A DNA stretch of 63,295 bases from Candidatus Altiarchaeota archaeon (GTDB lineage Archaea > Altiarchaeota > Altiarchaeia > IMC4 > QMZM01). Within the stretch, counting starts at the first letter, position 1. Every line of letters begins with the position of its first letter. This document shows positions 3,171 to 63,295 of this stretch, one piece after another. Made by a program: the position numbers and the translations under genes. The notes beneath the pieces are model-generated. The model searched no databases, had not been told where the DNA came from, and was given only the letters and a program-made list of their open reading frames with translations. The stretch is taken from positions 1 through 63,295 of the forward strand of contig JAFGDV010000024.1 of NCBI GenBank assembly GCA_016931955.1, in the 5' to 3' direction.

Positions 3171-3207
3171 CCTGCTTTTTAAACAATCAAACCCATATTT
3201 AGTCACA

Positions 3208-3723
3208 ATGAAACCCAAGAAGGGGAGGGACTGGTTATTTGACGACTTCTTCAGGGACTTTGAGGAGGAATTCAGGAGGATCGAAGAGGACCTTTCAAGG
3301 ATCCTTGAGGGTAGCTTGTCTGAGGACAAATTAGGTAAACCGGTCGTCTATGGTTTCTCCATCAATGTGAGCCCAGACGGCGAGCCTCGTATTGAACGCT
3401 TTGGTCATGTTCCTAGGGAGGGTGAACCTCTTGTCTCTGATGAACGAGAGCCTTTGGTCGATGTCATTGAAACCGAGAAGGAGATTCGTGTTGTCGCTGA
3501 GTTGCCTGGAGTGGAGCGGGAAGACATTTCCCTCAAAGTCTCGGGCGACGTTCTTGAGATTGATGTAGACACCGCCGCTAGAAAGTACCATAAGCAGTTG
3601 TTTCTTCCTGTTCGTGTGAAGGAGGACGTCACTAAAGCCACTTACAAGAATGGGGTCTTGGAGGTGAGGTTGTCTCCTGCGGGTCCTCGCAGGAGTCCTT
3701 CTTTCAGGGTTAACATTGACTGA
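3208..3723 (+). CDS. hsp20: Small heat shock protein Hsp20
   Basis: REPLVDVIE, VVAELPGV, ATYKNGVLEV alpha-crystallin motifs. Confidence 0.93.
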   Translation: MKPKKGRDWLFDDFFRDFEEEFRRIEEDLSRILEGSLSEDKLGKPVVYGFSINVSPDGEPRIERFGHVPREGEPLVSDEREPLVDVIETEKEIRVVAELPGVEREDISLKVSGDVLEIDVDTAARKYHKQLFLPVRVKEDVTKATYKNGVLEVRLSPAGPRRSPSFRVNID

Positions 3724-21500: not shown

Positions 21501-21611
21501 GCCCTCTTCGTGAGTCTGATACTCGCCCCCTGATTCAGGCTCTATCGGAATAGCCGAAGCCACGGATATCAATACAAACAACGCTGTCACATAAAACCAT
21601 CTGTTCTCCAT
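18546..21611 (-). CDS. Large signal-peptide/coiled-coil protein with 37-aa beta repeats; paralogue of 25975-28953
   Basis: Signal peptide ..SVASA|IPIEP; shared N-terminal blocks; likely start MENRW. Confidence 0.8.
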   Translation of the reverse strand: MENRWFYVTALFVLISVASAIPIEPESGGEYQTHEEGSLPQQSIPIPSLPLASSGVALGVFFIVMGLKKDPKSLFSEVEESPAEEAPAKKLESESVNRYSSMLDSARNRLAELEKQAEVCRLRVINEKRRARRNGHSSSRPLKAVEGAYDKVLSEIREVKNTIGILESWKDNLLKLDFSPDEGFKMDDRTYFFSNSVLRGITPEEAYRRFIKKSEKAYNEFTALMDKIHYYVRDNLGRLGWDAVDYAKELLESTYMGFREELNQLRDEYLKEQNGRGGSWNKYHEKLYENYFREFREKSEKLFEDYSLNVDEQAFDVLVPESVKLELEMREREALEKEKLMMRDRKRRWSQQLRDKANRLQKNLLNEYRRLYDQTIFREFKEKIDAWCEEARDAAWKMKWQRTLEKAEARCQEIDLFLANGFQEFQALTHQKAVAELTREYYKPEIDIKEAVEEYRREQPPEPAPTQPNAAIPAQDSPGIVYDPLGVCVASSIDPVIAGEGGQGGIIPVIDLNTGVLGVYVPAEGALMWNYKDKAVTGSYGSFTLGLDYNSSVMGLSFGNSSSLVWDYGGKNLEGSYSDFMFGLDYNNSVANLNYGNDSSLVWSYAEGNIEGSYGNFFGSLDYNNSVANLKYGSDSGVVWDSQAETVEGYHNGFNGVLDYGKSLLNLSYGNLTGFSLDFGNRILEAFYGSHNVRVDEDSLSASGAGNWEPVNQPVNLFYSLNAANNAEKPNAGPQSNSLPLLGFSLEDGNWDVELNLLPFAASKKFKDVGEISVEGRPGIYFWNQGEEFELGEEFDVNVGAYVKELCLGKYCVRDLGAGLYVNVDAPLLEKEVLEDGSRRLTYYPELNHMLELLEYEAEKDVSSTGNAIGLSKGFDGLEFRLIPAAVGLLNGASTPDNKVNQWCLDYLVNKFSKVVPEDQRTLLSSDYLTICLDDPALSNEFMRKDSYQYSKPLDSEVSRTSEFYTSTGCPEGELVCEKVETVTEDTPIWLPVFEFVGDCVGNASNLIYGVFKSLGLDTLL
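19520..20035 (-). repeat. 111-nt (37-aa) tandem coding repeat, ~4.5 units
   Basis: GSY/GYH/AFY anchors at 20000, 19889, 19778, 19667, 19556; unit GSYGxFxxxLDYNxSVxxLxYGxxSxLVWxY. Confidence 0.85.
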
Positions 21612-21676
21612 TGGAAACACCTCCGCACAAAAATCTAACATAATATATACTACTTTAGAGTATAAAAAGGGGGCTG

Positions 21677-47802: not shown

Positions 47803-47925
47803 CTTCTGTGTTATTGTTTCCTCTGCAACCTTAATAAGGTGAAAGGTATATATATGACATTAATAAATATTTAAAAAGTAGTATAATGTTGGGGTGTTGG
47901 AGTTGAGTTACTTTGGGTGTATGGT

Positions 47926-50900
47926 TTGAAGCAGGGGTTGATTTATGCGGTAGTGTTAGGAGTCTTTTTCTTGTCTGTAGGGTTCTCCTTCTCTCAGCTT
48001 TCTGATCCTGAGAACATCAGTTTTTCTGTATCAACCGATAAAGAAATCTATTTTTTGGATGAAATCGTCCGCGTTTCTGTTTCTGCTCCAGGTAATTCTT
48101 CAACTAATCTCTCTATCCTTGATCCTCAGGGAGGGATTTATTCCACCTTCAAGGAAAACTTGGGTAACTTCACGCACCTCTATTCTCCATCTTCTATTGG
48201 AGACTATTCAGTCCACGCTCACTTTTCTTTACTAAATATCAGCTCTAATGCCTCCGCCTTCTTCAAGGTGATCCCTTTTGTGGAGACTAATCCCCTGGAA
48301 AACGCAAGTTTATGGACGGATAAACCCACCTATTATCTGAATGAAATCATCCGCATCTCTGTTTCTGCACCGAAAAACACGACAACGAACCTGACCATAC
48401 GAAACCCCACAGGCAGCCTCTACTCAACCCTAAAGGAGCTTATAGGCTCCTTCACCCACCTCTTCTTCCCTGAATTCTCTGGGAACCACTCAGTCCGCGC
48501 CTTTTTTTCTCTCCAGAATTGGAGCAGCAACTCCTCTGTCTCCTTCTCCGTGCTATCTCCTGCAATAGAAAACGCCACCAATGAATCTGAGGTTCCTGAA
48601 AACCCCCCAGTGTCGCCTCTCGACCTTGCTTCTCTTTCAACGGATAAGGTGGTCTATCAACTAGATGAGACTGTCCGCATATCCCTCTCCGCTCCAGAGA
48701 ATACTTCCACGAATTTGACAATACAAAATCCTCTTGGAGGGCTTTACTCCTCCTTAAAAGAAAAACTCGGTAGCTTCACGCACCTCTACTTGCCAGAGTT
48801 CATAGGAGACTATCTGGTCTTCGCTGAGCTTTCTCTCCACAATGAAACCCGGGATTTGAACACTAGCTTCCAGGTAGTTGCAGAGAATGTCTCAAAGACC
48901 AATATCTCGGAGTCTCTCTTCAACTTGAAAGCAATGAAAAAATACTTCAACGCTAACAAAAACCCGGAATTCATACTCTATTCCAAGAAGAAACCTGAGA
49001 AGGAAAAAATCAAGGCTATCGTGTACTACGGTGGGCAAGAAACGGATATTCAAGCGGAGGTAGAGGAAATGCAAGATGGTAATATCTCCATAAAAATACT
49101 GAAAAAGAGGGCATTCAGAGCAGGGCTATACACACTACAGGTACAGGTTGATGAAGATCACACGATAGAGCGGGAGTTCTCTTGGGGTCTTGTTTCTCTA
49201 AACACACGGAAAAGCATCTATGCGCCCGGAGAGATGGCAGAGTTCATCATTGTTGTTTTAGACAGCGAAGGGCACTCCGTCTGCAACGCTGAGCTCTACC
49301 TGTCGGTTACCGACCCAGAAAACAAAGAGACTATGTACTCTACTTCAGACGGAACAATCTCACCTTCTCAGGAATGCGGGATCTACTACGCCAACTATTC
49401 AACGGAGATAGAGGGAAATCACACAGTAGAAATCACGGCCTTGGTCTCTGGGATGGAGGTAAACTTCTCCACCCATTTCCTTGTTCGGGAGGAATATGGG
49501 TTTGACATCATCAGAACCGCAGAGAGTAAGATTGATCCTACGCAGCAGGAATGGTTTGATGTCTCTGTGGGGATAGAGAGCTTTATCGGTGGAGACGCCC
49601 TGACAGTAGAGGAATCTGTTCCAGCAGAGTTTGAGGTTCTTACCGATGCAGATATCCAGGAGGAAGGCGATACAAAGATCTTAACTTGGAACAAGGAACT
49701 GATAGACGGAAAAACAACGGTAACCTACTCCTACTCTGTACCTGAGATCTGGCCTTACCTCTACACATTAGGTCCACTTGAAATAAACAGCAACTTCAGT
49801 GAAGCACGGCCCTGGTACATCGCAGTGGATCCAAGCTATCCTGCAACTCCAACAGCGTCGAACGACAATGAGGTAACAGAGACGGGGAATACCTTCGTCA
49901 CCAAGAAGACACTAACGGTAACGAAAAACGGCGAGTCTTGGCTGAAAACAGAACATGAATTAGCTACCAGCAACGCGGCCAGGGCAACTGAGTTAAAGAT
50001 TGTCTCCCAGAGTAATGGCGCAATCACTTGCACGAATTCGAGCACAACAGTATATCCCAGTTATACGACGTACTACTGTGAACTGGACATATCGTCTCTA
50101 TCAGACGGAAGCCAAAGCTTCAACCTGCAACTCAGAAGGACAAGTGCATCTGCCGCCACCGCCTATAACAGAAACTGGAGGATATACCTGGAAGTAATTC
50201 CCTCTATTGTAACACTCAAAACCCATGGGAATTCCTCTTATTCTGGGATAGATAAATTCTTTAGTCGCCAGCAGACAATTTTCGTTGAAGCTAATGTAAC
50301 TGCTTCTGACGGCTCTAATATGACAGATGCTACTGTAACCGCCAACTTCACTGTGGGCGGAAGCTTTGAGAAAATCCTTACACTATCACACTACTCTGGA
50401 TCGATCTATAGGGGTAACTGGACTACGAACTCCACTCAGACAGTTGGCGTTTACAACATAAGCGTTTACGCTAACAATTCCGATGGAAACACAACCGGGA
50501 GCAATTCCTTCCACCTCTACTCTGGGGAGAACGTCTCCGCCTACCGCATGGATTGGAACGACGATGGAAGCAACGAGTCCGTGATGGAAAACAGGCATCT
50601 GATAGCCGTGTTCAACGAGACGGATAATACGGATGGATTAATCCTCTACTTAGAGCAAAAGGATTCTAATGTCGGCTACACATTTGGAAAAATCTATGAT
50701 CCGAATTCGATTGGTAGAGGTGAAGTAACCACCACGAACATGAAGGAAATCAGAATCTATGACTTCTCCTTTTCGCAGGAAGGGGAGAACCTCGCCTCGG
50801 TCGACTTGAATATAAAGACTACTGTCAACGACCCCCCGCCCAGCAACCCCGATAAAGTTACGGAAAAAGAAATCAGTAGAGCTGAAAGCACCGGAGTTGA

Positions 50901-53900
50901 TGGAGGAGATAGAGGTTTGGCCTCAGAGCCTTTTTCAGGGATTAACTCAGGACCTGTCTTTGGAGAAAGAACATCTAGTATTGGTTCGGAGCAGATGTCT
51001 CCAACAATCTCATCTATTTATGTTGAACCTTTAAAAGTCGCGCCTGGGGATTTTATGCATGTTTCAGCCGAAGTTTCTGATGGATATGAAATCGAATCTG
51101 TCACCGCTTACATGGGTGGAATCGAGATAATCGAACTGAGATTACTGAATGGCTCAGTCTATAGGGGGATTTGGGGGGGAGACTGGCTGGTTCATGATAC
51201 TGAGAACAGGGAGTATACTACGACAGTCACTGCTACAAATGCTTTGGGGTTTAGTTCTTCCGCCGACGTTGGGTGGAGTGATCCCCCGAATGTTGTCCAG
51301 ATCCATTATCGGTGGAGAAACGATGACAACGGGACATCAGAAAACGATTATCTTTACGTTAATGCCACTACAGGCAATGATTCAACCGCTGAATTGAATA
51401 ACCCTGACAAACCTTGGAAGACAATCAATGAGTCAATAAATTACGTGAAAAACAATCTCTCCCCTCTTCAGAAACCGACAATCATTGAGATCCAGGATTC
51501 AGCAACCTACACTGAGGGGATCCGTCTTGCGGGTATCACAACTTCCAGCACCAACAGGCTTACTATCCGAGGCGCCAAAGACCAGATGCCGACTTGGAAG
51601 AACGACAACAGCAATATCCTGTTTTGCGATTATGATTCTACAAACTCTTATGGTGCATTGGATATTGCCGTCTCCTACGTCACCATTGAGAGGATAAGCT
51701 TTACCGGGACAAAAAATCACGGTGTTAAACTATGTTGGAATAATGTCCATAACATTACCATAAGGAATTGCATATTCCACGATATGACCATTAGCACAGG
51801 AAATTATAACCACAATTCTGTCGGAGTCTATGGGGTGGCACCAGATTCCCAGGTATATAACAATGTGTTTTATAACCTTGTCTATAGCATTAACTTTTGG
51901 GGAAACGGCCCTGTTAAACTCAGAAATAACATCTTCTCTGTTAATCCTTGCTCAAGCGAAGTTGAGATGGCCTTTGTGAACTACAATGCTTATAGTAATA
52001 ACCATCCTGATTCAAACTACAATATATTCCAGCTTAACACGGGCTATCTTGCTGTTGGATCGTGGAATACTCCAACATATTATACCACTCTTGCCGACTG
52101 GCAGGCTTGTTCTATCACGCCGGCGCCGGATCAGAACTCTACTTCAGGCGACCCAAAGTATGTGACTGCTGGAACGGATTTCCACCTGAAATCTGTTTAC
52201 GGTCACTGGACAAGTTCGGGTTGGGTAAACGATTCAGAATCTAGCTCTGGTATTGATGCTGGAGTTCCTTTCAACATCGGCTTTGAGTACACTTATTACG
52301 ATAAGGAAGCTGAAGACAACGGCGATAGAGTGAATATTGGAGCCTATGGAAACACTGATCAGGCTTCTCTCAGCGGTAATTATACAGGATATTGGAATGA
52401 GTATAAGGAGGATGGCACCTGGAAAGCAGCCGAAGATACTTTAGTGCATAATCAGTCGAAAAATGAAGGCATCAGGCTGAGGTTCTCCATCAGGAATACT
52501 GGGACATCGGCTGATAATTACACTTATCGTCTGCAGGTTGCCGCAAGAGGGGATTTTTACAGCTGTGAGAATGTGACTTCTGGCTACTTTTCTGATGTTC
52601 CAACAACTTCTGACGGCTGTGGTTCAGCTGTTGCCTGTATAACCAATGCTACTTGGTTTGAGGATGGCGCCCCCACGATCAGTCAATTAAGCACCCCAAG
52701 CTCCCTTACCTTTGTCCGCGGCGGGATGGTTGAGGACTCCTCAAATCAGACCGACAAGATCACTTTAAACCAAGATACCTTCACTGAAATTGAATACAAT
52801 TTCCAGTTTACAGATAATGCTTCAAACGCCACCACCTATTGCTTCAGGGTTGTAAATGGGGGGGTTGGAGCCTTAGACGGTTATTCTAAAGTCGCTACAA
52901 TCACCACTACTGAACTTACAACTTCCTTCAATCTCACTGTAACGATGAGGACTGAAGACGTTGACTATCTAGTGTACAGATTGCACAACTTTGATTCGAG
53001 TATTGACGATATAAGTGATGTCTGGTCAGATATTGCCGGGACCTTGGGTTCTTCTGTTTCAGATGACAGATATCATTTGGAGAATGGAACCGACGCCTTA
53101 GTGAGTTCGCTGACGGCAGAGCAGTGGAATGACTACACAGCATCAAATTACTCCCTCATCTACGACAACTCCGCCACAGGAGACTCCGTCAACGACAACG
53201 TTATTGCATGGATTAGATTTAATGAAACGGAGAACATCTCATTCCAAGACACTGGGTTGTGGAATTCCTCTTCAGAGGGGTTGAGGATACGATACAACAC
53301 CTCCTCCGCATCGGCAACGGATGAAGTAAATTACATCCTCGCATTCACTACCGGGGGCTATGACACGATACAACAGTGGATGTCCACAGTAGAGGGGGGG
53401 AGTTTCCCGACGGTGAACTTTATGGCTTCTCCTCCAGGAGTCTATCTGAACTCTCCGCAAAATCAGGCAGTAACGAATGACACGACACCGGACTTCAGCT
53501 TCAATGTCGTGGGTTCAGAGTCAACTTATAACTGCACTCTGTATCTGAATGACACTAACAAGGGCAACAATGCCTCAACGCAGAACAATACACCTACAAC
53601 GATAACCTCTACAGCACTCTCTGATGGAACCTACAGTTGGTACGTGAACTGCACTGCCACCGGTTTTGCAGAACAATCGAAGATTAGGGAGATAACGATT
53701 GACACTACCGCCCCGACCACCACTGCAACAGCAATAATCTCCAACGGTTCTTCCTACACATTCGACACATGGACAAACTCTTCCTATGTGAACATAACAC
53801 TAAACTGCTCTGATTCTGGTTCGGGCTGCGACACAACAATGTACTGCACAGACACGACAAATACCTGTGAACCCTATAAAAACTTCAAGCAGGAAATAAA

Positions 53901-56900
53901 CATCTCCACTACTGCAGGGAATCTAACAGACTACCAGGTGAAGATAAATCTGAACTCCTCCAACGTCGGCGCAGGGTTTAACTGGACCAGAGACGAAAAC
54001 GCGACAAGATTCAAGTACTACAACACAAGCTCAGGGAAAGAAACAGGATGCTCTCACTGGATAGAGTCTTGGAACTCTTCTTCAGAGGAAGCAACCATCT
54101 GGGTAAAAGTCCCCTTCCTGGAGAACAACACCAACACAACAATATACATGAACTATGGAAATCCAGATGCAATTTATAACAACACCCAAGGAGGGAATGA
54201 CATATTCCTGTTCTTTGATGATTTTGAGGGTGACATCTTAGATACGAACAAATGGAGTGAGATAGGCAGTGGAGGGTCGTATTCTGTCTCCGATTCAATA
54301 CTAACCGTAACTGGCGGAGCGAGTGGTTGGGAGACAATAATAGGTAAAACACGATACGCCATGCCTAAAGAATTCGGGTATCGTGCAAAGATGACAGAAA
54401 CAACCGTAACGAATATAGTGATAGATGATAGAGATGCTCAAGGGAATTTCCAAGGTTTAGGATATGATTGGGCTAAATGGTCATATTGGGATGAGAAAAA
54501 CTACTCATGTGGGCATGATGGCAGCGAAACCGGTGATGCGAGAACTTCGGATTTAAGCAACTTTACTTTGCTGAAATTAGTATGGACTAGCACAGCCGTT
54601 AAATTTTATGAGGATGGTGTGCTCAAAAAAACATTAACCACAAATGTGCCCCAAGACACTTGCGCCCCTCTTTTTGAAGGATATTTCAACTCGTCAAAAG
54701 TATACATCGATTGGGTCTTCGTGCGAGAATATACCTCCATCGAACCAACAATCTACTTTGGCTCAGAAGAATCCCCTTCAAACATACAGATTACGAAAGA
54801 AGGGATAAGCTACATCCGATACCGATCAAACGATACTCTCGGAAATTTGGAGGACACAAAGAACCAGACAATAAAGATCGACTACACACCAGCGCAGATA
54901 ACTATAGTTAATCCAGAGAATGACACGAATCTCTCCTCTGAAACAACTTGGACATGGATCAACGTCAGCACAGACGAAAACGCAGTCTGCAAATATAATC
55001 TAACAAACTCAAACTTCGACTACGCTTCACAGGGAACAACGTTCACGAATACAAGTGGGATGGCGCATTCATTCAACTACTCCGGGTTAGCGGATGGGCA
55101 GACTTATACATTATACTATAAATGCAACGACTCCACAGCAGGAAACATCAATCCAAGCTCAGTGATGCACACCTTCGGAGTCAACAAAACTGTTACTTTT
55201 CACATCGACCTGAACTCCCCGGACAACGAAACAGCGACGGATGACTCAACACCTGACTTCAACTTCACAGTCTCTGGTTCAAAATCCCTCTACGTCTGTG
55301 AACTGTTCATAAATGACTCAAGCTACGGCAAAACAGACTTCATAAACGTCGGACACATAGACGACGGGGGATGGGTGGAGAGCGTGTGGGGAGATGGAAC
55401 ATACATATATTCAGCAGACTATGCTGGACTGCGGGCATACACATTCAACGGAACAGATTTTAATAAAACAGGATACATAGACGACGAAGAAAATGAATTG
55501 GGGGTGTGGGGAGATGGGACATACATATTCCTAGCAAATCAGGATGGCGGGTTGAGGGCCTACACATTCAATGGAACCAATTTCACCAACGTAGGACACA
55601 TAGATGATGGAGGGAATGGAGTCGGAGTGTGGGGAGACGAGACATATATTTATCTGGCAAACTCTGGTGATGGACTTAGAGCCTACACATTCAACGGGAC
55701 AAACTTCACCAACGTCGGCTGGATAGACGACGGAGGGAACGGGGTCGATGTGTGGGGCGATGGAACATACATATACCTAGCAAACTATGCTGACGGATTG
55801 AGAGCCTACACATTCAACGGAACAAACTTCTCTAATGTTGGGCACATAGACGACGGAGACGAGGGATATGGAATAGGGGTGTGGGGAGATGGGACATACA
55901 TATATCTAGGAAACTACGGTGATGGTCTTAGAGCTTACACATTCAACGGGAGCAATTTCACAAATGTTGGACACATATACGACGGCGGATTCGGACAGGG
56001 GGTGTGGGGGGATGGGACGTACATATATCTGGCAAACGAGTTCGACGGGCTTAGAGCCTACACATTCAACGGAACAAACTTCTCTAATGTTGGGCACATA
56101 GACGACGGCGGAGTTGGTTGGGGAGTGTGGGGAGACGGAACATACATATATCTAGCAAACCATGATGATGGTCTGAGAGCATACTCATTTACTCCTTCTG
56201 CTTTAAACAACACACCAACAACAATCACGGCAAACTTAAATCTATCAGATGGAGTTTATAACTGGTACATAAACTGCACAGCAAATGGCGCTACGAACCA
56301 ATCAGAGATAGGAGAAATCACAATAGATGCAACCCCGTCGACTACCAACGCCTCAGCAGTCAAAAACGATTCCACAACATACACCTTCGACACGTGGACG
56401 AATTCAAGCTACGTGAACATCACACTGAGCTGTGACGACGGATTAGGGATAGGATGCGACACAACACAATACTGCACAGACACGACAAACACCTGCACTC
56501 CCTCATGGTTCAACAGCTCATGGCTCTACCGACAACCAATATACATCTCAAATACGGCAGGAAATCTAACAGATTACCAAGTCAAGATAGAGCTGACTTC
56601 TGCGAATGCTGGCTCCCACTGGAACTGGACAAACAACGGATCAGATATACGGTTTACATACTACAACATAACCGGCGGAACCGAAACAGAATGCCTCCAC
56701 TGGATTGAATCATGGAATTCTACCTCAGAGACGGCAACAATCTGGGTGAAAATACCATTCATAGAAAACAACACAGACACCATAGTAAACATGTACTACG
56801 GAAACACCGGCGCAGCCTACAACAACACACAAGGCGGAAACAACACCTTCCTCTTATTCGACGACTTTGATTCGCTTACTGGTTGGAGCGGCGACACCGC

Positions 56901-59900
56901 TAACTTCGACACCAGCAACGGATACCTTTTAGCCACCAACAACACAGACAGCTTCCACAAAATCTACAAACCATTCACTGAAAATGTAGCCATATGGGAG
57001 ATAAAAGCACGCATCAACGGCACCGACTCAGCAGACCAAATCTGGAGACTCTACCCCTTCTACAACAATACCCTCTCCTATTGGGATGTCAATCTAGCAG
57101 AACCGGGGGGAGGGAACGTAATCGCACTTGAAAAAAATGGAGGAGCAACTGGTAGTAGCCCTGGTATACAAGACACATACTGGCATGATATAAAAGTTAC
57201 CCGAAGTTCTTCAGCTGACTGGAGGGTATACGTTGATGGAACAGGAGTAATAAGCACGACAGACGATATGTGGCCAACTGCGACCTACATTGGGATTGAG
57301 TACAAGCAGCTAACTTCAAATGATTACATCGCATGGGATACTCTCCGAGTACGCAAATACGCCAGCCCAGAACCAAGCGTGAGCATCGGAGGAGAAGGAA
57401 GCTCAACAACAATACAGGTAACAACCGAGGGGACCTCGTACATCCGATACCATTCAAACGACTCACTAGGAAACCTGGAGGACACAAAGAACCAGACGAT
57501 AAAAATCGACACTACTGCTCCAACGATAAACTTTGTCTCTCCAACCTCCTCAGGCAACCTCTCACAGAACTGGATCGCAGCCAACGTAACCGCACTAGAC
57601 GGTGGAGTAGGACTTGACACAATAAAACTGACACTATGGAACTCAACAGGAGGAATAGTACAAAGCAACACATCGCAGACTTCCCCGCTGTTCGTAAACC
57701 TCACTTCCCTGTTGGAAGGAACCTACTACCTGAACGCCACAGCAAACGACACCTTTGAACACACAAGCACAACAGAGACAAATACAATAACATTAGACAC
57801 AACCAAACCAACCATAATACTTCAGTCGCCAGAGAACATAACCTACAATACAACACTGATAAACCTGAACGTCTCCGCAGACGACATAATAGACACCTGG
57901 TGGTACTCCCTCAACAGCGGAACAAACATAACCTTCACACCCAACACCACAATAATTGCAGAATATGGCTCAAACCATCTGATAGTCTACGCCAACGACA
58001 CAGCAGGAAACGAGAACTCATCAGAGATATACTTTAGCACAAGCAACTACCTAGACGACTGCTCAATACTAAACGAACCAGGAACAACCTACTACCTACA
58101 AAAAGACATAATAAACTCCACCAAAACAACGTGCATAAACATCACAGCAAACAACATAATACTAGAAGGACAAGGACACACAGTAGACGGAATAAACACC
58201 ACCTCAACCTATGGAATATACATACTTCGACCAAGCCAACAAACAACAAACATAACAGTGAAAAACTTAGAGATAACAGACTGGTACAATGGTGTTGCAA
58301 ATTACTACGCTAACAATAACACATTCTACAATATAACATCCGAACTAAATTACTATGGTGTGTACTTTGGTTATACTAATTACACCAACTTAACTGAGAG
58401 TACCATCTCAAATAGTCTCATCGGCTTATGGATGCTCTATTCAAGTTTTAATACGGTCTATAATAGCACATTCACGTCATGTTCCTACGAAGGAGTGCGC
58501 ATAGGCGCCGACTCAACGTATAACATATTCTCAAACATGACCGTAAGCAATGGTCTGAACAGAGGAATCTTTATCGAATATGCTCAGAACAATACAATAA
58601 AAGACTCACGAATAGAAAACAATGCAGGTAGTGGAATTTACGTGTATTGGGCTGGATTCAGTCCTACAGAAAACAACAAAATCTATAACAATCTCTTCAA
58701 CAACACAAACAACTCCATCATAAATATGTTCACAGCCTACATAAACAACTGGAACACCACAAACCAGACTGGAACAAGAATCTATTCCTCTGGAACAAAC
58801 ATTGGAGGAAACTACTGGACCAATGCTACAGGAACAGGATACTCAGATACCTGCAACGACACAAACGAGGACGGATTCTGCGACGATCCCTACACATTAG
58901 CAGCAAACAACACAGACTACCTACCACTAAGCAACAAATACAAAGCCGACTGGGTCGAGGTCACAACATGCAGAAACCTCAACGAATCCGGGAAAACATA
59001 CCAACTCAGCCAAAACGTCTCCTCTCCAGGAACCTGCTTCACCATCCAAGCAGACAACATCACCTTAAACTGCTTAGGGTACACAATAAATTATTCTCAG
59101 TCCTCTGTAGGTTATGCAGTAAACAATACGGGCTACAACTATACGAAAATAAAGAACTGCAACATAGTGCAAGGAAACACCAGCCAATCCAACTCCTACG
59201 GCATCCGCTTCAATAAAACAATAAATGGGTCAATAGAAAACAACACCATCCAGACTTCGGGCAGTTCCAGCTGCTATGGAATCTATATCCTTAACTCGAA
59301 TAACACAAGGTTTTATAAAAACAATATAACGACGACCGGCTACTACGGCTACGGAATACGAATAGACTCTTCCACAAACGCTAACTTCACAGACAACATC
59401 ATATCAACTTCAGACTTCTATGCGAGAGGCATATACCTCCTCAACTCCTCAGACAACACAATCTACAACAACACCATCTCCACCGCAAGCAACGCCTGGG
59501 CCTTCGCCGTGGGAATGTACGCATCCAGCAAAAACACGCTAAAGGAAAATAAATTCACTACAACTCATGCCCAAAGCATAGGAGTCCTAGTCCCGGCAGA
59601 ATACAACATAAGCGAGTCTTACTTCAACCACTCAATAGACTCAAGCAACCTCGCACACGGAAAACCCATCCTCTACGTATTCAAAAACGACTCCGTTACC
59701 CTGGAAAACCTCAACAACACCTACGGCCTGATCTATGTGACATCCTCAAGGAATGCGACAATAAGGAATATAACAGTAGCCGGCTTAGACGGGATATACT
59801 TGGCTAACACATCAGATTCAACCATAGCCAACTGCACACTCAAAAACACAACAAGCAAAGGCATCGGCGTATATTATAGCTCATCCAACAACAGAATAGA

Positions 59901-62900
59901 GAACAACACAATATCAACCAACTCCCCGGAAGGCTACCCAATAGAAGTGGGCAGAGCCTCCAACAACATAATCCAAAACAACATCCTCACAACCTACGCA
60001 TCCTGGGACATAGGACTCAACCTCTGGGGGCCGGGCTCAAACAACAACATTACAAACAACAAAATAACAACTCACGCAGGTTGGAGAGCTGAAGGTGTCT
60101 ATATAGCACTTAACGCAAACAACAACACATTTTACAACATCACAGTACAGACTTCAACATGCTCCTACTGTTACGGCATAGACTTCGACTCAGTCTCAGG
60201 CAACAGATTCATCAACTCAAACATAAACGCCGGCACAAGCTACGACATTTACATAAGAGGAACAGAAGACTACATAAACTACATCATAAACGGCACATTC
60301 AATCAATCGGATATAGGATTCGAAAACTCCTCAACAACAAACAAAATAGAAGTACAATGGTACCTAGACGTCTACGTAAACGACACCTTGAGTAATCCCA
60401 TAGATCAAAGTGACGTAACAGGCTGGATGGATAACAGCAGCCAAGCCTTCTTCAACCAAACCAATGCAACAGGATACATCACAAGACAGACTCTGACGGA
60501 ATACCTCCAGAATGCATCACAGGTCTATCCAACGAATGTCACATACTACACGAACTACACAATAAACGCAACCAAAGCAGGTTACACAGAAGAAACCAAA
60601 CAAGTAAACCTAACAGCAAGCAAAAGCATTTACCTGACATTATCCAGAGAAAATAATCCACCCAATAAACCAACACTAAACAGCCCAGACAACGCCAGCT
60701 ACGTAAACATGAACTTTGTTCTCCTGAACTGGACCTGCACGGACCCGGACGGAGACAACATGACGGCGTACATATACGGAGACAACAGCACAGCGACCAC
60801 TCTTATAAACACCACCACAGGCTGCGTGAACGGCTCATCCTACACATTCAACCGGACTGGATTAGGAGACGACATATATTATTGGAAGATCACGTGCAAT
60901 GACTCCTCCTTAGCGAACACATCTGACACGTATGAGTTCATGACGGGCTGCAACCCACCCAAATCCGGAAACTGGAACATCAACAGCACACTCAACTGCC
61001 AGGACATAACCAGAATATCAGAAGTCGACTTAGTGATAGGCAACAACGGAGGCGTAACCTTCAATAACGTTAATCTGACACTACAAAAAGTGACAGTCCA
61101 AGCAGGAGGCGTACTAAGATTCCAGAACTCCAAAAATTCTGTAACACACAACAACAACTGGACTATCAGCGGAACAACCTATGTCAACCATACGACCCAC
61201 CACATAAACACAACAACCAACGGCGCAATAGGCATAACAGTAACCTCCGCCGGAGCCTTCTATATTTACAACAACTCAAACATCACCAACGGAGAAGGAG
61301 TAGGAGGCAACAGCACAGCACACTTCTTCTTCCAAATAGATCCCGGAGCGACATTCCAAATGAACGATTCCGTACTAGAAGAATGCGGTTTTGCCGGAGA
61401 AGAGAACCAGAAAGGCTTATTCATACAAACAGACAATGTCTGGATAGGAAACAACACAATAACAAACAACTACATAGGAATCTACTTGAATGCATCAGAC
61501 AACAACACAATAAAGGATAACACAATAAAACAAAACCAATACGGAATCCTCCTCTATTCCTCAGCAAACAACACCATATACAACAACCTACTAAACAACA
61601 CAAACAATTTTTATTTCGCTGGAACAAACTACACAAACTATTGGAACACCACCAACCAGACAGGGACGAGGGTATATTCTTCTGGAACAAACATTGGCGG
61701 CAACTATTGGACCAACGCCACTGGAACCGGTTACTCAGACACCTGCAACGACACAAGCTATGACGGATTCTGCGACGACCCATACATTTTAGCAACAAGC
61801 AACAGAGACTATCTGCCACTAAGCAACAAATACACGGCAACTGCCTTCCACATCGACCTGAACTCCCCACCAAACCAGACGACTACAAACGACAACACAC
61901 CAGACTTCAACTTCAATGTTACTGGAATAACAATCACTTACACCTGCGAATTGTTTATAAATGGCACTGGTTATGAAAACAGATGGTTCTTGGATTCAAG
62001 CATAGTATCAGGGCTGGGGGATGTCGGCGGGCGTTCAAAGCCAGAAGTATATCAGAAGGACGGGGTATGGCATCTTATCTCTGGGGAAATGGATGGTGTG
62101 TTCAACGGCTACCAGTGGAATGGGATACAATGGGTATCGAATTCAAGCATAGTATCTGGGTTGGGTAGTATCGGCTGGAATTCAGACCCGACAGTATACC
62201 AGAAGGATGGGGTATGGCATCTTATCTCTGGGGAAAGTGATGGTGTGTTCAACGGCTACCAATGGAACGGAACACAATGGGTATCAAATTCCAGCATAGT
62301 ATCCGGGCTGGCTAATGTTGGCGGGGAGGGGTATTCGTCCCCAACAGTATTCCAAAAGGATGGGACATGGTATCTGATAGCTGGGGAATGGGATGGTGTA
62401 TTCAACGGCTACCAGTGGAACGGAACACAATGGGTATCGAATTCCAGCATAGTATCCGGGCTGGGGGATGTCGGCACGCATTCAATCCCAGAGGTATATC
62501 AGAAGGACGGGATATGGCATCTTATCTCGGGGGAACAAGATGGTGTGTTCAACGGCTACCAGTGGAATGGGATACAATGGGTATCGAATTCAAGCATAGT
62601 ATCCGGGCTGATTAAGGTCACCACGATTTCAGCCCCAGCAGTATACCAAAAGGAGGGGGTATGGCATCTGATAACAGGAGAACAGTATGGTACGTTCTAC
62701 GGATACCATTGGGATGCTCTGAACAACACACCAACAACGATAACTGCAAACCCTGCGCTGTCAGACGGAACATACTACTGGTACATAAACTGCTCTGCTT
62801 CCGGATTTACGAACCAGTCGAAGATCAGAGAGATAACAATCGATGCGACGCCTCCGATAACAAACGCAACCGCATTAATATCCAACGGCTCAGCTTACGT

Positions 62901-63295
62901 CTTCGACACATGGACCAACTTCACCTACGTGAACGTCACACTAAGCTGCGACGACGGCACAGGAACAGGATGCAATACAACACAATACTGCACAGACACA
63001 AACAACACATGCTCACCCAATATAACATACACAACACATATACAGATCACCCAAGAAGAAACCAGCTACATCCGATTCAGGAGCAACGACACTCTTGGAA
63101 ACCTAGAGGATGTGAAGAGCGAGACAATAAGGATCGACACCCAACCACCAGAAATAAACTTTGTAGAACCAACAACAGAGGCAGGTAACCACTCACAGGA
63201 TTGGATCTCGGCGAATGTGACCGTAGTAGATCATAACCTGGACACGATAAACCTTACGCTGTGGAACTCCACCGGAAGGATAGTACAAAGCAACA
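47926..63295 (+). CDS. Giant secreted multidomain surface protein (>5100 aa, runs off window end)
   Basis: TTG start MKQGLIYAVVLGVFFLSVGFSFSQ signal peptide; frame 1 read open wherever checked and the ORF track lists no terminated frame-1 ORF here; Ig-like, beta-helix, DUF2341-like and propeller modules; abundant N-x-S/T. Confidence 0.9.
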   Translation, partial: MKQGLIYAVVLGVFFLSVGFSFSQLSDPENISFSVSTDKEIYFLDEIVRVSVSAPGNSSTNLSILDPQGGIYSTFKENLGNFTHLYSPSSIGDYSVHAHFSLLNISSNASAFFKVIPFVETNPLENASLWTDKPTYYLNEIIRISVSAPKNTTTNLTIRNPTGSLYSTLKELIGSFTHLFFPEFSGNHSVRAFFSLQNWSSNSSVSFSVLSPAIENATNESEVPENPPVSPLDLASLSTDKVVYQLDETVRISLSAPENTSTNLTIQNPLGGLYSSLKEKLGSFTHLYLPEFIGDYLVFAELSLHNETRDLNTSFQVVAENVSKTNISESLFNLKAMKKYFNANKNPEFILYSKKKPEKEKIKAIVYYGGQETDIQAEVEEMQDGNISIKILKKRAFRAGLYTLQVQVDEDHTIEREFSWGLVSLNTRKSIYAPGEMAEFIIVVLDSEGHSVCNAELYLSVTDPENKETMYSTSDGTISPSQECGIYYANYSTEIEGNHTVEITALVSGMEVNFSTHFLVREEYGFDIIRTAESKIDPTQQEWFDVSVGIESFIGGDALTVEESVPAEFEVLTDADIQEEGDTKILTWNKELIDGKTTVTYSYSVPEIWPYLYTLGPLEINSNFSEARPWYIAVDPSYPATPTASNDNEVTETGNTFVTKKTLTVTKNGESWLKTEHELATSNAARATELKIVSQSNGAITCTNSSTTVYPSYTTYYCELDISSLSDGSQSFNLQLRRTSASAATAYNRNWRIYLEVIPSIVTLKTHGNSSYSGIDKFFSRQQTIFVEANVTASDGSNMTDATVTANFTVGGSFEKILTLSHYSGSIYRGNWTTNSTQTVGVYNISVYANNSDGNTTGSNSFHLYSGENVSAYRMDWNDDGSNESVMENRHLIAVFNETDNTDGLILYLEQKDSNVGYTFGKIYDPNSIGRGEVTTTNMKEIRIYDFSFSQEGENLASVDLNIKTTVNDPPPSNPDKVTEKEISRAESTGVDGGDRGLASEPFSGINSGPVFGERTSSIGSEQMSPTISSIYVEPLKVAPGDFMHVSAEVSDGYEIESVTAYMGGIEIIELRLLNGSVYRGIWGGDWLVHDTENREYTTTVTATNALGFSSSADVGWSDPPNVVQIHYRWRNDDNGTSENDYLYVNATTGNDSTAELNNPDKPWKTINESINYVKNNLSPLQKPTIIEIQDSATYTEGIRLAGITTSSTNRLTIRGAKDQMPTWKNDNSNILFCDYDSTNSYGALDIAVSYVTIERISFTGTKNHGVKLCWNNVHNITIRNCIFHDMTISTGNYNHNSVGVYGVAPDSQVYNNVFYNLVYSINFWGNGPVKLRNNIFSVNPCSSEVEMAFVNYNAYSNNHPDSNYNIFQLNTGYLAVGSWNTPTYYTTLADWQACSITPAPDQNSTSGDPKYVTAGTDFHLKSVYGHWTSSGWVNDSESSSGIDAGVPFNIGFEYTYYDKEAEDNGDRVNIGAYGNTDQASLSGNYTGYWNEYKEDGTWKAAEDTLVHNQSKNEGIRLRFSIRNTGTSADNYTYRLQVAARGDFYSCENVTSGYFSDVPTTSDGCGSAVACITNATWFEDGAPTISQLSTPSSLTFVRGGMVEDSSNQTDKITLNQDTFTEIEYNFQFTDNASNATTYCFRVVNGGVGALDGYSKVATITTTELTTSFNLTVTMRTEDVDYLVYRLHNFDSSIDDISDVWSDIAGTLGSSVSDDRYHLENGTDALVSSLTAEQWNDYTASNYSLIYDNSATGDSVNDNVIAWIRFNETENISFQDTGLWNSSSEGLRIRYNTSSASATDEVNYILAFTTGGYDTIQQWMSTVEGGSFPTVNFMASPPGVYLNSPQNQAVTNDTTPDFSFNVVGSESTYNCTLYLNDTNKGNNASTQNNTPTTITSTALSDGTYSWYVNCTATGFAEQSKIREITIDTTAPTTTATAIISNGSSYTFDTWTNSSYVNITLNCSDSGSGCDTTMYCTDTTNTCEPYKNFKQEINISTTAGNLTDYQVKINLNSSNVGAGFNWTRDENATRFKYYNTSSGKETGCSHWIESWNSSSEEATIWVKVPFLENNTNTTIYMNYGNPDAIYNNTQGGNDIFLFFDDFEGDILDTNKWSEIGSGGSYSVSDSILTVTGGASGWETIIGKTRYAMPKEFGYRAKMTETTVTNIVIDDRDAQGNFQGLGYDWAKWSYWDEKNYSCGHDGSETGDARTSDLSNFTLLKLVWTSTAVKFYEDGVLKKTLTTNVPQDTCAPLFEGYFNSSKVYIDWVFVREYTSIEPTIYFGSEESPSNIQITKEGISYIRYRSNDTLGNLEDTKNQTIKIDYTPAQITIVNPENDTNLSSETTWTWINVSTDENAVCKYNLTNSNFDYASQGTTFTNTSGMAHSFNYSGLADGQTYTLYYKCNDSTAGNINPSSVMHTFGVNKTVTFHIDLNSPDNETATDDSTPDFNFTVSGSKSLYVCELFINDSSYGKTDFINVGHIDDGGWVESVWGDGTYIYSADYAGLRAYTFNGTDFNKTGYIDDEENELGVWGDGTYIFLANQDGGLRAYTFNGTNFTNVGHIDDGGNGVGVWGDETYIYLANSGDGLRAYTFNGTNFTNVGWIDDGGNGVDVWGDGTYIYLANYADGLRAYTFNGTNFSNVGHIDDGDEGYGIGVWGDGTYIYLGNYGDGLRAYTFNGSNFTNVGHIYDGGFGQGVWGDGTYIYLANEFDGLRAYTFNGTNFSNVGHIDDGGVGWGVWGDGTYIYLANHDDGLRAYSFTPSALNNTPTTITANLNLSDGVYNWYINCTANGATNQSEIGEITIDATPSTTNASAVKNDSTTYTFDTWTNSSYVNITLSCDDGLGIGCDTTQYCTDTTNTCTPSWFNSSWLYRQPIYISNTAGNLTDYQVKIELTSANAGSHWNWTNNGSDIRFTYYNITGGTETECLHWIESWNSTSETATIWVKIPFIENNTDTIVNMYYGNTGAAYNNTQGGNNTFLLFDDFDSLTGWSGDTANFDTSNGYLLATNNTDSFHKIYKPFTENVAIWEIKARINGTDSADQIWRLYPFYNNTLSYWDVNLAEPGGGNVIALEKNGGATGSSPGIQDTYWHDIKVTRSSSADWRVYVDGTGVISTTDDMWPTATYIGIEYKQLTSNDYIAWDTLRVRKYASPEPSVSIGGEGSSTTIQVTTEGTSYIRYHSNDSLGNLEDTKNQTIKIDTTAPTINFVSPTSSGNLSQNWIAANVTALDGGVGLDTIKLTLWNSTGGIVQSNTSQTSPLFVNLTSLLEGTYYLNATANDTFEHTSTTETNTITLDTTKPTIILQSPENITYNTTLINLNVSADDIIDTWWYSLNSGTNITFTPNTTIIAEYGSNHLIVYANDTAGNENSSEIYFSTSNYLDDCSILNEPGTTYYLQKDIINSTKTTCINITANNIILEGQGHTVDGINTTSTYGIYILRPSQQTTNITVKNLEITDWYNGVANYYANNNTFYNITSELNYYGVYFGYTNYTNLTESTISNSLIGLWMLYSSFNTVYNSTFTSCSYEGVRIGADSTYNIFSNMTVSNGLNRGIFIEYAQNNTIKDSRIENNAGSGIYVYWAGFSPTENNKIYNNLFNNTNNSIINMFTAYINNWNTTNQTGTRIYSSGTNIGGNYWTNATGTGYSDTCNDTNEDGFCDDPYTLAANNTDYLPLSNKYKADWVEVTTCRNLNESGKTYQLSQNVSSPGTCFTIQADNITLNCLGYTINYSQSSVGYAVNNTGYNYTKIKNCNIVQGNTSQSNSYGIRFNKTINGSIENNTIQTSGSSSCYGIYILNSNNTRFYKNNITTTGYYGYGIRIDSSTNANFTDNIISTSDFYARGIYLLNSSDNTIYNNTISTASNAWAFAVGMYASSKNTLKENKFTTTHAQSIGVLVPAEYNISESYFNHSIDSSNLAHGKPILYVFKNDSVTLENLNNTYGLIYVTSSRNATIRNITVAGLDGIYLANTSDSTIANCTLKNTTSKGIGVYYSSSNNRIENNTISTNSPEGYPIEVGRASNNIIQNNILTTYASWDIGLNLWGPGSNNNITNNKITTHAGWRAEGVYIALNANNNTFYNITVQTSTCSYCYGIDFDSVSGNRFINSNINAGTSYDIYIRGTEDYINYIINGTFNQSDIGFENSSTTNKIEVQWYLDVYVNDTLSNPIDQSDVTGWMDNSSQAFFNQTNATGYITRQTLTEYLQNASQVYPTNVTYYTNYTINATKAGYTEETKQVNLTASKSIYLTLSRENNPPNKPTLNSPDNASYVNMNFVLLNWTCTDPDGDNMTAYIYGDNSTATTLINTTTGCVNGSSYTFNRTGLGDDIYYWKITCNDSSLANTSDTYEFMTGCNPPKSGNWNINSTLNCQDITRISEVDLVIGNNGGVTFNNVNLTLQKVTVQAGGVLRFQNSKNSVTHNNNWTISGTTYVNHTTHHINTTTNGAIGITVTSAGAFYIYNNSNITNGEGVGGNSTAHFFFQIDPGATFQMNDSVLEECGFAGEENQKGLFIQTDNVWIGNNTITNNYIGIYLNASDNNTIKDNTIKQNQYGILLYSSANNTIYNNLLNNTNNFYFAGTNYTNYWNTTNQTGTRVYSSGTNIGGNYWTNATGTGYSDTCNDTSYDGFCDDPYILATSNRDYLPLSNKYTATAFHIDLNSPPNQTTTNDNTPDFNFNVTGITITYTCELFINGTGYENRWFLDSSIVSGLGDVGGRSKPEVYQKDGVWHLISGEMDGVFNGYQWNGIQWVSNSSIVSGLGSIGWNSDPTVYQKDGVWHLISGESDGVFNGYQWNGTQWVSNSSIVSGLANVGGEGYSSPTVFQKDGTWYLIAGEWDGVFNGYQWNGTQWVSNSSIVSGLGDVGTHSIPEVYQKDGIWHLISGEQDGVFNGYQWNGIQWVSNSSIVSGLIKVTTISAPAVYQKEGVWHLITGEQYGTFYGYHWDALNNTPTTITANPALSDGTYYWYINCSASGFTNQSKIREITIDATPPITNATALISNGSAYVFDTWTNFTYVNVTLSCDDGTGTGCNTTQYCTDTNNTCSPNITYTTHIQITQEETSYIRFRSNDTLGNLEDVKSETIRIDTQPPEINFVEPTTEAGNHSQDWISANVTVVDHNLDTINLTLWNSTGRIVQSN
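48019..48880 (+). repeat. Three tandem MG2/Ig-like domains at the N-terminus of the giant protein
   Basis: S.STDK..Y.L.E.VR.S.SAP.N..TNL.I..P.G..YS..KE..G.FTHL. Confidence 0.8.
55339..56196 (+). repeat. Seven ~123-nt (41-aa) LVIVD-like repeats, probable 7-bladed beta-propeller
   Basis: F.NVGHIDDGG....VWGDGTYIYLAN..DGLRAYTFNGT. Confidence 0.9.
61984..62715 (+). repeat. Five ~147-nt (49-aa) Trp-rich repeats, probable beta-propeller
   Basis: Units start 61984, 62131, 62278, 62431, 62578: WVSNSSIVSGL..VG..S.P.VYQKDG.WHLISGE.DGVFNGYQWNG.Q. Confidence 0.9.

Follow-up and report, generated by a model that had tools for sequence, protein, structure and literature searches.

The 63,295-bp contig JAFGDV010000024.1 (the window, which is the entire contig C40 of a 46-contig, 1.55-Mb archaeal genome bin, G000) ends in a giant open reading frame (ORF) for a putative surface protein. 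In this protein, two repeated domains, here called scaffolds A and B, occur three times each, either uninterrupted (empty) or opened at one fixed position by a whole further domain (the payload). The protein is probably a giant glycosylated rod with an adhesive role, in which A and B act as split-domain sockets for swappable heads of a ligand-binding type. All six modules lie inside the ORF and were recovered where an initial annotation, made from the DNA letters alone, had placed them. It described scaffold A as once empty, once with a seven-repeat insert, and once with a five-repeat insert, followed each time by scaffold B, twice with a DUF2341-like insert and once empty; the halves match across copies with E values from 1e-10 to 1e-83 for A and B together. 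In the protein, A1 (empty), A2, and A3 span amino acids 1841 to 1933, 2428 to 2807, and 4644 to 4979, and B1, B2, and B3 (empty) span amino acids 1934 to 2324, 2808 to 3201, and 4980 to 5077. The features are as follows, with bit scores from hidden Markov models (HMMs) of the scaffold halves (AN, AC, BN, and BC) and predicted local distance difference test (pLDDT) values from the structure models described below.

47917..63294 (+), giant surface-protein ORF; 5,126 codons open, 3' end truncated where the contig stops
53437..53715 (+), scaffold A copy 1, empty (immunoglobulin [Ig]-like, Big_13); Big_13 33.9 bits; pLDDT 96 to 98 (model me8a88d112bbb)
53716..53877 (+), scaffold B copy 1, N-half; half-HMM BN 95.6 bits; pLDDT 92 to 97
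53878..54777 (+), B1 payload, DUF2341 followed by a concanavalin A (ConA)-like lectin/glucanase-fold domain; DUF2341 76.1 bits; 1oq1_A Z 17.2
54778..54888 (+), scaffold B copy 1, C-half; half-HMM BC 73.0 bits; pLDDT 84 to 97
54889..55197 (+), spacer beta-sandwich domain "C", found after B in each module; repeated in BLASTP; weak Pur_ac_phosph_N match (E 5e-4)
55198..55326 (+), scaffold A copy 2, N-half; half-HMM AN 74.3 bits
55327..56202 (+), A2 payload, seven repeats of ~41 amino acids (LVIVD-like propeller as a lead only); 7.0 copies of 123 nt
56203..56337 (+), scaffold A copy 2, C-half; half-HMM AC 86.7 bits
56338..56505 (+), scaffold B copy 2, N-half; half-HMM BN 98.6 bits
56506..57405 (+), B2 payload, DUF2341 and a second domain unlike that of B1 in sequence; DUF2341 68.9 bits
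57406..57519 (+), scaffold B copy 2, C-half; half-HMM BC 73.5 bits
61846..61974 (+), scaffold A copy 3, N-half; half-HMM AN 71.1 bits; pLDDT 87 to 93 (model md92135a573f8)
61975..62718 (+), A3 payload, five repeats of ~49 amino acids, modeled as a five-bladed beta-propeller; pLDDT 84 to 98; 3qed_A Z 21.3
62719..62853 (+), scaffold A copy 3, C-half; half-HMM AC 93.2 bits; pLDDT 89 to 96
62854..63147 (+), scaffold B copy 3, empty; NF047446 (barrel_OmpL47) 33.8 bits, below the cut-off of 40

Tiled BLASTP of the giant protein matched the N-halves of A1 and A2 (55% over 40 amino acids, E 2.7e-10) and of A2 and A3 (59% over 49 amino acids, E 4.4e-14), and the C-halves of A2 and A3 together with the starts of the following B copies (71% over 89 amino acids, E 9.7e-36). 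The stretch from the A1 C-half through the B1 N-half matched its counterpart in A2 and B2 (60.5% over 238 amino acids, E 4.3e-83), and the B2 C-half matched that of B3 and beyond (67% over 90 amino acids, E 5.8e-31). The same search revealed the repetition of spacer domain C (amino acids 2288 to 2363 against 5040 to 5114, and 3163 to 3251 against 5039 to 5126). In MAFFT alignments, each insert appears as one gap in the empty copies, with 47 invariant columns in A and 52 in B. B3 was also aligned to another two empty B copies from the same genome. The insertion points can be seen directly from the empty and filled copies of one gene, as the initial annotation had proposed. The GC content is 0.41 to 0.49 throughout, in scaffolds and payloads alike.

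Scaffold A belongs to the Pfam family Big_13 (PF19077), to which residues 8 to 90 of A1 align over profile positions 19 to 102 of 102, with a score above the cut-off of 27. The match of B3 to the NCBIfam model NF047446, an OmpL47-type beta-barrel, covers residues 26 to 94 with an E value of 3.4e-8, under the curated cut-off. Many homologues found with the B profile carry PF13290 or PF13287, and the bacterial ones carry chitobiase C-terminal-type domains. By sequence, scaffold B thus resembles the OmpL47 or chitobiase C-terminal type, with no claim of family membership. A sequence search of the PDB returned nothing for B and one insignificant match for A (E 0.65).

Structure prediction suggests that the two halves of each scaffold form one interrupted domain. 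In empty A1 and empty B3, single-domain models cover both halves. AlphaFold2 model 1, of empty A1 and filled B1 (81-row alignment), has a mean pLDDT of 87.1 and a predicted template modeling score (pTM) of 0.73, with pLDDT values of 92 to 97 in the N-half of B1 and 84 to 97 in its C-half. Model 2, of filled A3 and empty B3, has a mean pLDDT of 84.3 and a pTM of 0.74, with the A3 part at 84 to 98. It was made from a 27-row alignment (A8) after local MAFFT trials, in which many empty B copies spoiled the propeller columns; an earlier alignment (A7) was discarded, as free-standing propellers fell in separate columns. The strands of empty A1 (E30-37, E40-49, E54-57, E64-74, E77-80, and E84-88) are matched strand for strand by those of filled A3 (E31-38, E41-44, then beyond the payload E291-293, E296-300, E308-318, E321-324, and E328-332). 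In these strand assignments, the A3 payload lies between E41-44 and E291-293, which form a single hairpin (E40-49) in empty A1, and the insert therefore opens the tip of one hairpin. When the halves of A3 were folded as separate chains, the complex scored 0.37 against 0.01 for the best control, graded as weak support; three runs agreed in at least 98% of contacts, with a partner pLDDT of at least 74. Of 157 solved complexes, 116 reach the mark used in this test, as do 2 of 215 mismatches; at scores up to 0.60, only 18 of the 157 solved complexes and both mismatches reach it. The test used the authors' own alignment, and Ig-like folds are abundantly solved. Independent folding of the halves, which the initial annotation had named as an outcome contrary to its reading, is not borne out by the single-domain models, the confidence of the halves (pLDDT of ~84 to 98), and the strand match, with the complex score adding weakly. 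Judging by the models, the A and B halves flanking a payload would complete one beta-sandwich, which is the arrangement expected of a split domain.

The payloads differ in fold and family. Tandem Repeats Finder places the A2 array at 55332 to 56189 (period 123 nt, 7.0 copies, 73% matches) and the A3 array at 61994 to 62669 (period 147 nt, 4.6 copies, 79% matches), with a fifth, more diverged copy seen in the protein. BLASTP at an E value of 1e-6 gives no match between the two families of repeats, in agreement with the earlier description of two unrelated propellers, and neither of them has a meaningful Pfam or NCBIfam family. The A2 payload is 69% identical to a second copy in this genome (C5) and 73% identical to the payload of P0300. 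It gave no Pfam match at E values up to 1, the LVIVD repeat (PF08309) included, and its similarity of 0.85 to 0.89 to LVIVD clusters in atlas features, under the tool's line of 0.9, is a lead only. For the A3 payload (model 2 residues ~50 to 291), DSSP assigns five repeats of a four-strand pattern, as in a five-bladed propeller. Its best structural match is 3qed_A (root mean square deviation [RMSD] 2.7, 228 residues aligned), and the five-bladed enzymes of glycoside hydrolase (GH) families GH43, GH62, and GH32 match with Z scores of 18 to 21 at only 9 to 14% identity. Foldseek also aligned model 2 with the fucose-lectin propellers RSL, AFL, and PLL (E ~1e-6), with TM scores of at most 0.52 and large RMSD values, so these are leads only.

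In B1 and B2, the first half of the payload is DUF2341 (PF10102; cut-off 23.4). Only the first ~115 amino acids of the two payloads align, with 64% identity, so that the lectin-like cores differ, as the initial annotation had noticed. The second half of the B1 payload (model 1 residues 256 to 435) matches 1oq1_A with an RMSD of 2.5 over 177 aligned residues and has a predicted ConA-like fold. GH16 enzymes and legume-lectin-like domains match it as well, with Z scores of 14 to 16.5, and the model match speaks for fold membership only. Laminin_G gave no Pfam match in the window's own B payload copies. In a paralogue on contig C42, the B payload matches DUF4861 (E 8.7e-11). Relatives of the five-blade family include 25 short proteins (145 to 440 amino acids), none with an A half; the 15 of these with at least 270 amino acids and a match to at least 76% of the query have four or five repeats (five in 12 of the 15). 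A profile of four socketed B copies, covering the B halves, DUF2341, and the ConA-like domain, found 13,189 library proteins at E values up to 1e-3, and most of the 150 matches listed cover only positions ~56 to 380, that is, without the B halves. By these matches, the payload families also occur outside sockets.

Relatives found with the empty-scaffold profiles are mostly proteins with DPANN-type labels (Micrarchaeota, Aenigmarchaeota, Woesearchaeota, Nanohalarchaeota, Diapherotrites, and Altiarchaeales), and the B profile also reaches more distant bacterial relatives. Within the window's phylum, A-type domains occur in 20 of the 61 species genomes of the collection, and nested B with DUF2341 was found in this genome only (1 of 61). 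With both halves required to score above 35 bits and duplicates removed for A, there are 81 distinct A modules, 64 of them empty and 17 filled with six classes of payload, and 151 B modules (134 distinct), 9 of them filled. Outside this genome, empty modules with adjacent halves number 97 for A and 212 for B. Homologues do not, then, always carry the same inserts, the other outcome that the initial annotation had named as contrary to its reading. In 20 filled A modules, the conserved aromatic residue of the motif "...CELFIxxxxY" immediately precedes the insert, whose first residue is glycine in 16 of the 20. The payload classes of scaffold A, four of the seven without a Pfam family, are as follows.

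Seven-repeat family: this genome's own copies and P0300
Five-blade family, with three, four, or five repeats: P0320, P0279, and this genome's own copy
Cysteine-containing "DTEDSYSC" domain of ~134 to 150 amino acids: seven members
"WCYQES...EEAMWW" domain of ~146 to 169 amino acids: P0271 and P0272 are the fourth and fifth members
122-amino-acid domain: P0275
Four repeats of 50 amino acids: P0319
Lcl_C, the seventh class: two sockets of genome G004, of the same family as the window's genome

Lcl_C scores 37.4 bits in one of the two G004 sockets (cut-off 34.9) and 27.9 bits, below the cut-off, in the other. P0271 and P0272, with weak N-halves (20 to 23), were left out of the tree described below by the 35-bit rule and kept in the payload catalogue; P0020 and P0239 (half scores of ~16 to 22) were left out of the counts, and P0270 was rejected as a false call, its insert consisting of further Ig domains. 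For scaffold B there are three kinds of payload overall: plain DUF2341 with a ConA-like domain, seen elsewhere in P0139 and P0141; the DUF4861-like payload; and a payload of ~500 amino acids in P0046 (residues 332 to 836) and in an ORF of L041, an Aenigmarchaeota-labeled contig (ORF residues 772 to 1271).

Several of these proteins show further features. In P0046 and L041, two extra segments that resemble each other are inserted in turn into the DUF2341 domain, which adds a third level of nesting. P0300, from a metagenome-assembled genome (MAG) labeled Nanohalarchaeota, has at residues 693 to 1068 an A socket, preceded by NosD beta-helix blocks, whose seven-repeat payload is 72 to 73% identical to this genome's two copies; so high an identity under the label of another phylum suggests gene transfer or a binning error. 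P0279 has a second filled A socket at residues 1308 to 1510, with blades that carry a cysteine-rich extra loop, "C.NCTGHGYSS.YPYEL". P0320 begins with a free DUF2341 and Laminin_G_3 cassette (residues 1 to 350), and a later A socket of the same protein holds just three blades; a five-bladed ring cannot be closed by three or four blades. In L096 (G005:C19:121500-125600), two overlapping frames carry the A N-half and C-half, which are ~610 amino acids apart; an Lcl_C-like stretch (E 1.4e-4) precedes the frame change, and the payload may be large or broken.

A view of such an exchange comes from three related proteins. P0275 (828 amino acids) and P0277 (840 amino acids) are identical at 497 of 532 positions in the N-terminal flank and at 150 of 151 in the C-terminal flank, whereas the stretch enclosed by the A halves agrees at just 26 of 114 aligned positions: in the same A socket, P0275 holds the 122-amino-acid domain and P0277 an unrelated "DTEDSYSC" domain of 134 amino acids. 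In P0263, the same socket is empty, with 443 of 520 positions identical upstream. In a tree of scaffold A, P0275 and P0277 are sisters (support 95), joined by P0263 (support 98). Together, these comparisons show, at the level of the protein sequence, that in closely related proteins one whole domain has been replaced by another at a fixed socket. The divergent tract of P0275 and P0277 extends into both halves, over roughly the final 10 residues of the N-half and the initial 13 of the C-half. Because identity drops inside the scaffold halves, we infer that these halves may have served as homology arms in the exchange. For scaffold B, no close pair with differing contents was found under the criterion of at least 75% identity over at least 100 amino acids in each flank.

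Within the genome of the window, half-domain HMMs and tblastn retrieved seven copies of A and eight of B. Among the A copies, four are empty, two carry the seven-repeat payload, and one carries the five-blade payload; among the B copies, three are empty, four carry DUF2341, and one carries the DUF4861-like payload. The recombination that the initial annotation had proposed for this gene finds no support among the copies, the scaffold paralogues being only 66 to 75% identical in DNA. Alternative payloads within the population are likewise unsupported, with no credible alternative joint in the contigs of run X1. The comparison with an antibody made in the initial annotation holds for a framework with a variable part and fails for programmed diversification. 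Overall, the initial annotation is partly supported: its central points hold (sockets at fixed places, variable parts that are whole domains, and exchange between relatives), the mechanism at this locus is putative, and the principle is less new than it was made to seem.

In the mechanism proposed here, the stalk would consist of beta-helix blocks and Ig-like domains, among which A (Big_13) and B would serve as split domains. A whole folded domain would bud from one fixed hairpin of A or B, and the chain would then return to finish the sandwich. The payloads would have lectin-type folds, namely, the five-bladed and seven-repeat propellers and DUF2341 with its ConA-like partner, with the DUF4861-like domain in the paralogue. 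The rod would most likely display several glycan- or ligand-binding heads sideways, for attachment to partner cells, polymers, or surfaces; ligand binding by the payloads and the adhesive function are predicted from folds and analogy. Payloads would be exchanged by ordinary homologous recombination or gene conversion, with the conserved scaffold halves as homology arms and other sockets of the same or a foreign genome as donors. No dedicated switching machinery would be needed, and no sign of programmed payload switching was seen in this genome.

Several points weigh against this proposal. The contact between the halves is deduced from pLDDT values, from the likeness in strands, and from a complex test with a weak score, and the AlphaFold2 alignments included empty copies, which biases the models in favor of a single closed domain. 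In model 2, B3 is poorly predicted (pLDDT 39 to 55), because its alignment columns are thin (two true relatives) with noisy tails. Filled sockets are a minority of the modules (17 of 81 for A and 9 of 151 for B). The breakpoints in P0263, P0275, and P0277 were placed at the protein level only, and P0263 may be an orthologue or a paralogue. In the scaffold A tree, which has 85 columns, 40 of the 78 inner branches are unresolved; the label "empty" needs 13 changes on it, of which the starred branches force only 3, and the tree is too short to separate a single origin from multiple origins. The paralogues of this genome lack long identical tracts, and the seven-repeat modules of A2 and C5 agree at 72% over 1,461 nt with the scaffold included; low DNA identity combined with likeness of whole modules makes the copies of this genome look like old whole-module duplications and not like recent swaps. 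Finally, the predicted function rests on folds and analogy, and for both payloads with an assigned fold the best structural matches are glycoside hydrolases, so that an enzymatic role is possible.

This last point leads to an alternative in which the rod is a cellulosome-like enzyme display scaffold, its payloads being active glycoside hydrolases or lyases working on external polysaccharide. The five-bladed GH43, GH62, and GH32 enzymes at the top of the A3 matches, the GH16 laminarinases that match the ConA-like part (Z ~16), the NosD/pectate-lyase-like beta-helix blocks of the stalk, and the DUF4861 payload on C42, which we take to be of a family of polysaccharide-utilization loci, would all fit such a role. 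Neither payload, however, matches a glycoside hydrolase family of Pfam. The five blades are 73 to 77% identical to each other where compared, and high identity between blades is typical of multivalent lectin propellers and not of a single asymmetric active site. The GH16 motif E-x-D-x(1,2)-E was not seen on reading the B1 and B2 payload sequences, and the best single ConA-like match, 1oq1, is a galectin-like protein of unknown function. Enzyme display is therefore unlikely. Programmed cassette switching, as in antigenic or phase variation, would instead require silent donors and payload exchange at a high rate, with variation of specificity across the population. It could draw on the use of one junction by at least seven payload classes, on the clean replacement between proteins with flanks 93 to 99% identical, and on the several socket-bearing genes of a 1.55-Mb genome as possible donors. 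Such switching looks distinctly improbable, since the scaffold copies have no long identical arms, no promoterless cassette array was seen (all copies sit in long open frames), and the four alternative joints listed for the run X1 contigs have sides of 20 to 21 letters, none of them credible; contigs drop rare variants, and the evidence from these joints is accordingly weak.

Two further alternatives concern the architecture itself. The pieces on either side of a payload might be small elements in their own right, for instance linkers or half-domains pairing with neighbors, instead of one interrupted domain, and the low score of the A3 complex test would be in keeping with that. This is judged very improbable given the empty copies, in which the pieces are contiguous and matched end to end by single-domain models, the adjacent halves of the empty modules counted elsewhere, and the high AlphaFold2 confidence of the halves with a strand pattern like that of the empty copy. 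An assembly artefact, in which repeats caused chimeric joins that put unrelated domains between scaffold halves, could be suspected from the position of the gene at a contig end of a fragmented 46-contig MAG, and from a second assembler that breaks inside both repeat arrays. The contigs of that assembler, from run X1 (the one public run with the locus, probably the source sample and hence not independent data; contigs only), span all eight scaffold/payload junctions with no mismatch and break only within the arrays (55830 to 56080 and 62121 to 62574); the junctions are therefore firm, and the blade counts are without independent confirmation. In run X2, next to none of the sequence words of the locus are present. 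Moreover, unrelated data sets (P0300, P0279, P0320, P0139, and P0141) show these junctions again, with homologous payloads, and the frame stays open through all 5,126 codons, leaving an artefact with almost no likelihood. The adhesive rod with split-domain sockets thus remains the probable reading.

A bolder and unlikely extension is that the sockets form a "domain exchange standard" shared across phyla of small-genome archaea, with the scaffold halves as portable homology arms. If so, ligand-binding domains would be traded between genes, strains, and phyla, and the specificity of a rod could be re-tooled cassette by cassette. The sockets would then be a domain-level counterpart of hypervariable loops and a search key for unknown archaeal ligand-binding domains. 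Independently of that extension, the results offer a rule for reading the surface proteins in uncultured archaea, which are for the most part giants without annotation: where a Big_13 or OmpL47-like domain is interrupted, the insert is a candidate ligand-binding head. Applied through half-domain HMMs, this rule yielded the seven payload classes at one hairpin. P0263, P0275, and P0277 provide a natural experiment on domain exchange at a fixed socket, and the socket itself is a naturally validated insertion site for protein engineering.

The giant protein as a whole is most likely a membrane-anchored, glycosylated fiber of the archaeal cell surface. Its N terminus has a hydrophobic, signal-like segment, and it contains 256 N-x-S/T sequons compared with 117.7 ± 8.8 in shuffled sequences. 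A Pfam scan found NosD/Beta_helix blocks, DUF2341, and Big_13. Paralogous long frames on contigs C42, C38, and C21 end in cysteine-rich repeats, one transmembrane (TM) helix, and a cytoplasmic tail. In these paralogues (L001, L003, and L004), the repeats before the TM helix are tandem units of the form "C.DG.QN..E..(V/I)DCGG.C..C", and the tail is conserved between C42 and C38. C42 was considered as a continuation of the giant ORF; a direct join is unsupported, since the first domain of C42 and the domain at the end of the window are homologous but different in sequence. At the start of C42 (L001:3-1334, the beginning of a 2,843-amino-acid frame with an open 5' end), one Ig-like domain of the related surface protein is split by an intein-like (Hint) element. 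This element matches the Pfam model Intein_splicing over residues 32 to 375 (E 4.9e-7, 30.1 bits, below the cut-off of 35.8), and its low-complexity middle may be a decayed endonuclease.

Near the N terminus of the giant protein, amino acids 37 to 332 (48025 to 48912) form three tandem repeats of ~95 amino acids with 49% identity over 203 amino acids, followed by weak matches of MG2 or alpha-2-macroglobulin type. Upstream of the ORF, the window contains genes for a thermosome, TFIIB, and KaiC. A cluster at 8552 to 17258 encodes a V4R protein, two FIST-domain proteins, a ferredoxin-like protein, a B12/radical-SAM protein, and a KaiC-type ATPase. Two long ORFs on the − strand, at 18546 to 21641 (1,031 amino acids) and 25975 to 28953 (992 amino acids), match no Pfam family at an E value of 1e-5, and smaller neighbors are likewise without a match.

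The arrangement has its nearest counterpart in the repeats-in-toxin (RTX) adhesins of Gram-negative bacteria. The ligand-binding domains of these proteins "project out of companion split domains," usually Ig-like extenders, a single rod can carry several types of payload, and a payload can in turn be split (PMC12077191). A 2026 preprint reports adhesin isoforms in which only the carbohydrate-binding or vWFA head is swapped, at ~28% identity, with the rest similar (10.1101/2025.09.30.679566). Like AhLap of Aeromonas hydrophila, FrhA of Vibrio cholerae, and MpIBP, the rod described here would have Ig-like domains that a head interrupts before the chain returns, as predicted by the models; it carries several different heads, and in related proteins payloads are split further, as in the DUF2341 domains of P0046 and L041. 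The founding paper on split domains is reportedly that of Graham et al. (2024, Proteins 92:933). The archaeal protein differs from the RTX adhesins in its host and in its scaffolds, which are Big_13 and OmpL47-like domains and not BIg extenders. Furthermore, Pfam found no RTX (HemolysinCabind) repeat or beta-roll, no type I secretion system signal, and no retention module in the 5,126 amino acids within the window, from which the C terminus is missing, and the paralogues are anchored by a C-terminal TM helix. Its sockets are spread along the rod instead of being confined to a distal ligand-binding region, a single gene contains the same socket in both empty and filled form, and the load of sequons suggests heavy N-glycosylation.

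Adhesive domains are also inserted into loops of beta-sandwich or propeller stalk domains in Gram-positive pilus tip adhesins of the RrgA type and in integrins with I-domains, with a single fixed payload per site; among these, we are aware of no conserved socket that takes a family of interchangeable payloads. Programmed variation of cassettes, of the pilE/pilS or vlsE kind, would call for silent donors with closely similar flanks and for junction variants in a population; here, the paralogues are 66 to 75% identical in DNA, and no credible alternative joint was seen in the contigs of one run. Among archaea, the adhesin-like proteins found in the gut methanogens Methanobrevibacter smithii and Methanosphaera stadtmanae are described as having Ig-like "archaeal big domains," a right-handed beta-helix, and a membrane anchor, and the text of that paper does not use the words "split," "nested," or "inserted" (PMC11532034). 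By description, the present rod resembles them in its Ig-like domains, beta-helix, and predicted anchor. DUF2341 proteins encoded near archaeal type IV pilus genes have been proposed as tip adhesins by analogy with PilY (PMC4858521). The B1 payload, DUF2341 followed by a ConA-like fold, resembles the DUF2341 and LamG/ConA-like cassette of such putative pilus-tip and other surface proteins; unlike the free cassette, it is nested here in an Ig-like domain. Within the literature searches made, no description of split-domain sockets in archaea was found. The principle itself is already described for bacterial RTX adhesins, and the present protein is an archaeal, membrane-anchored variant of it with unrelated scaffolds, which extends the split-domain principle to archaea. 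Unrelated scaffolds and a different anchoring point to convergent use of the hairpin tips of stalk domains.

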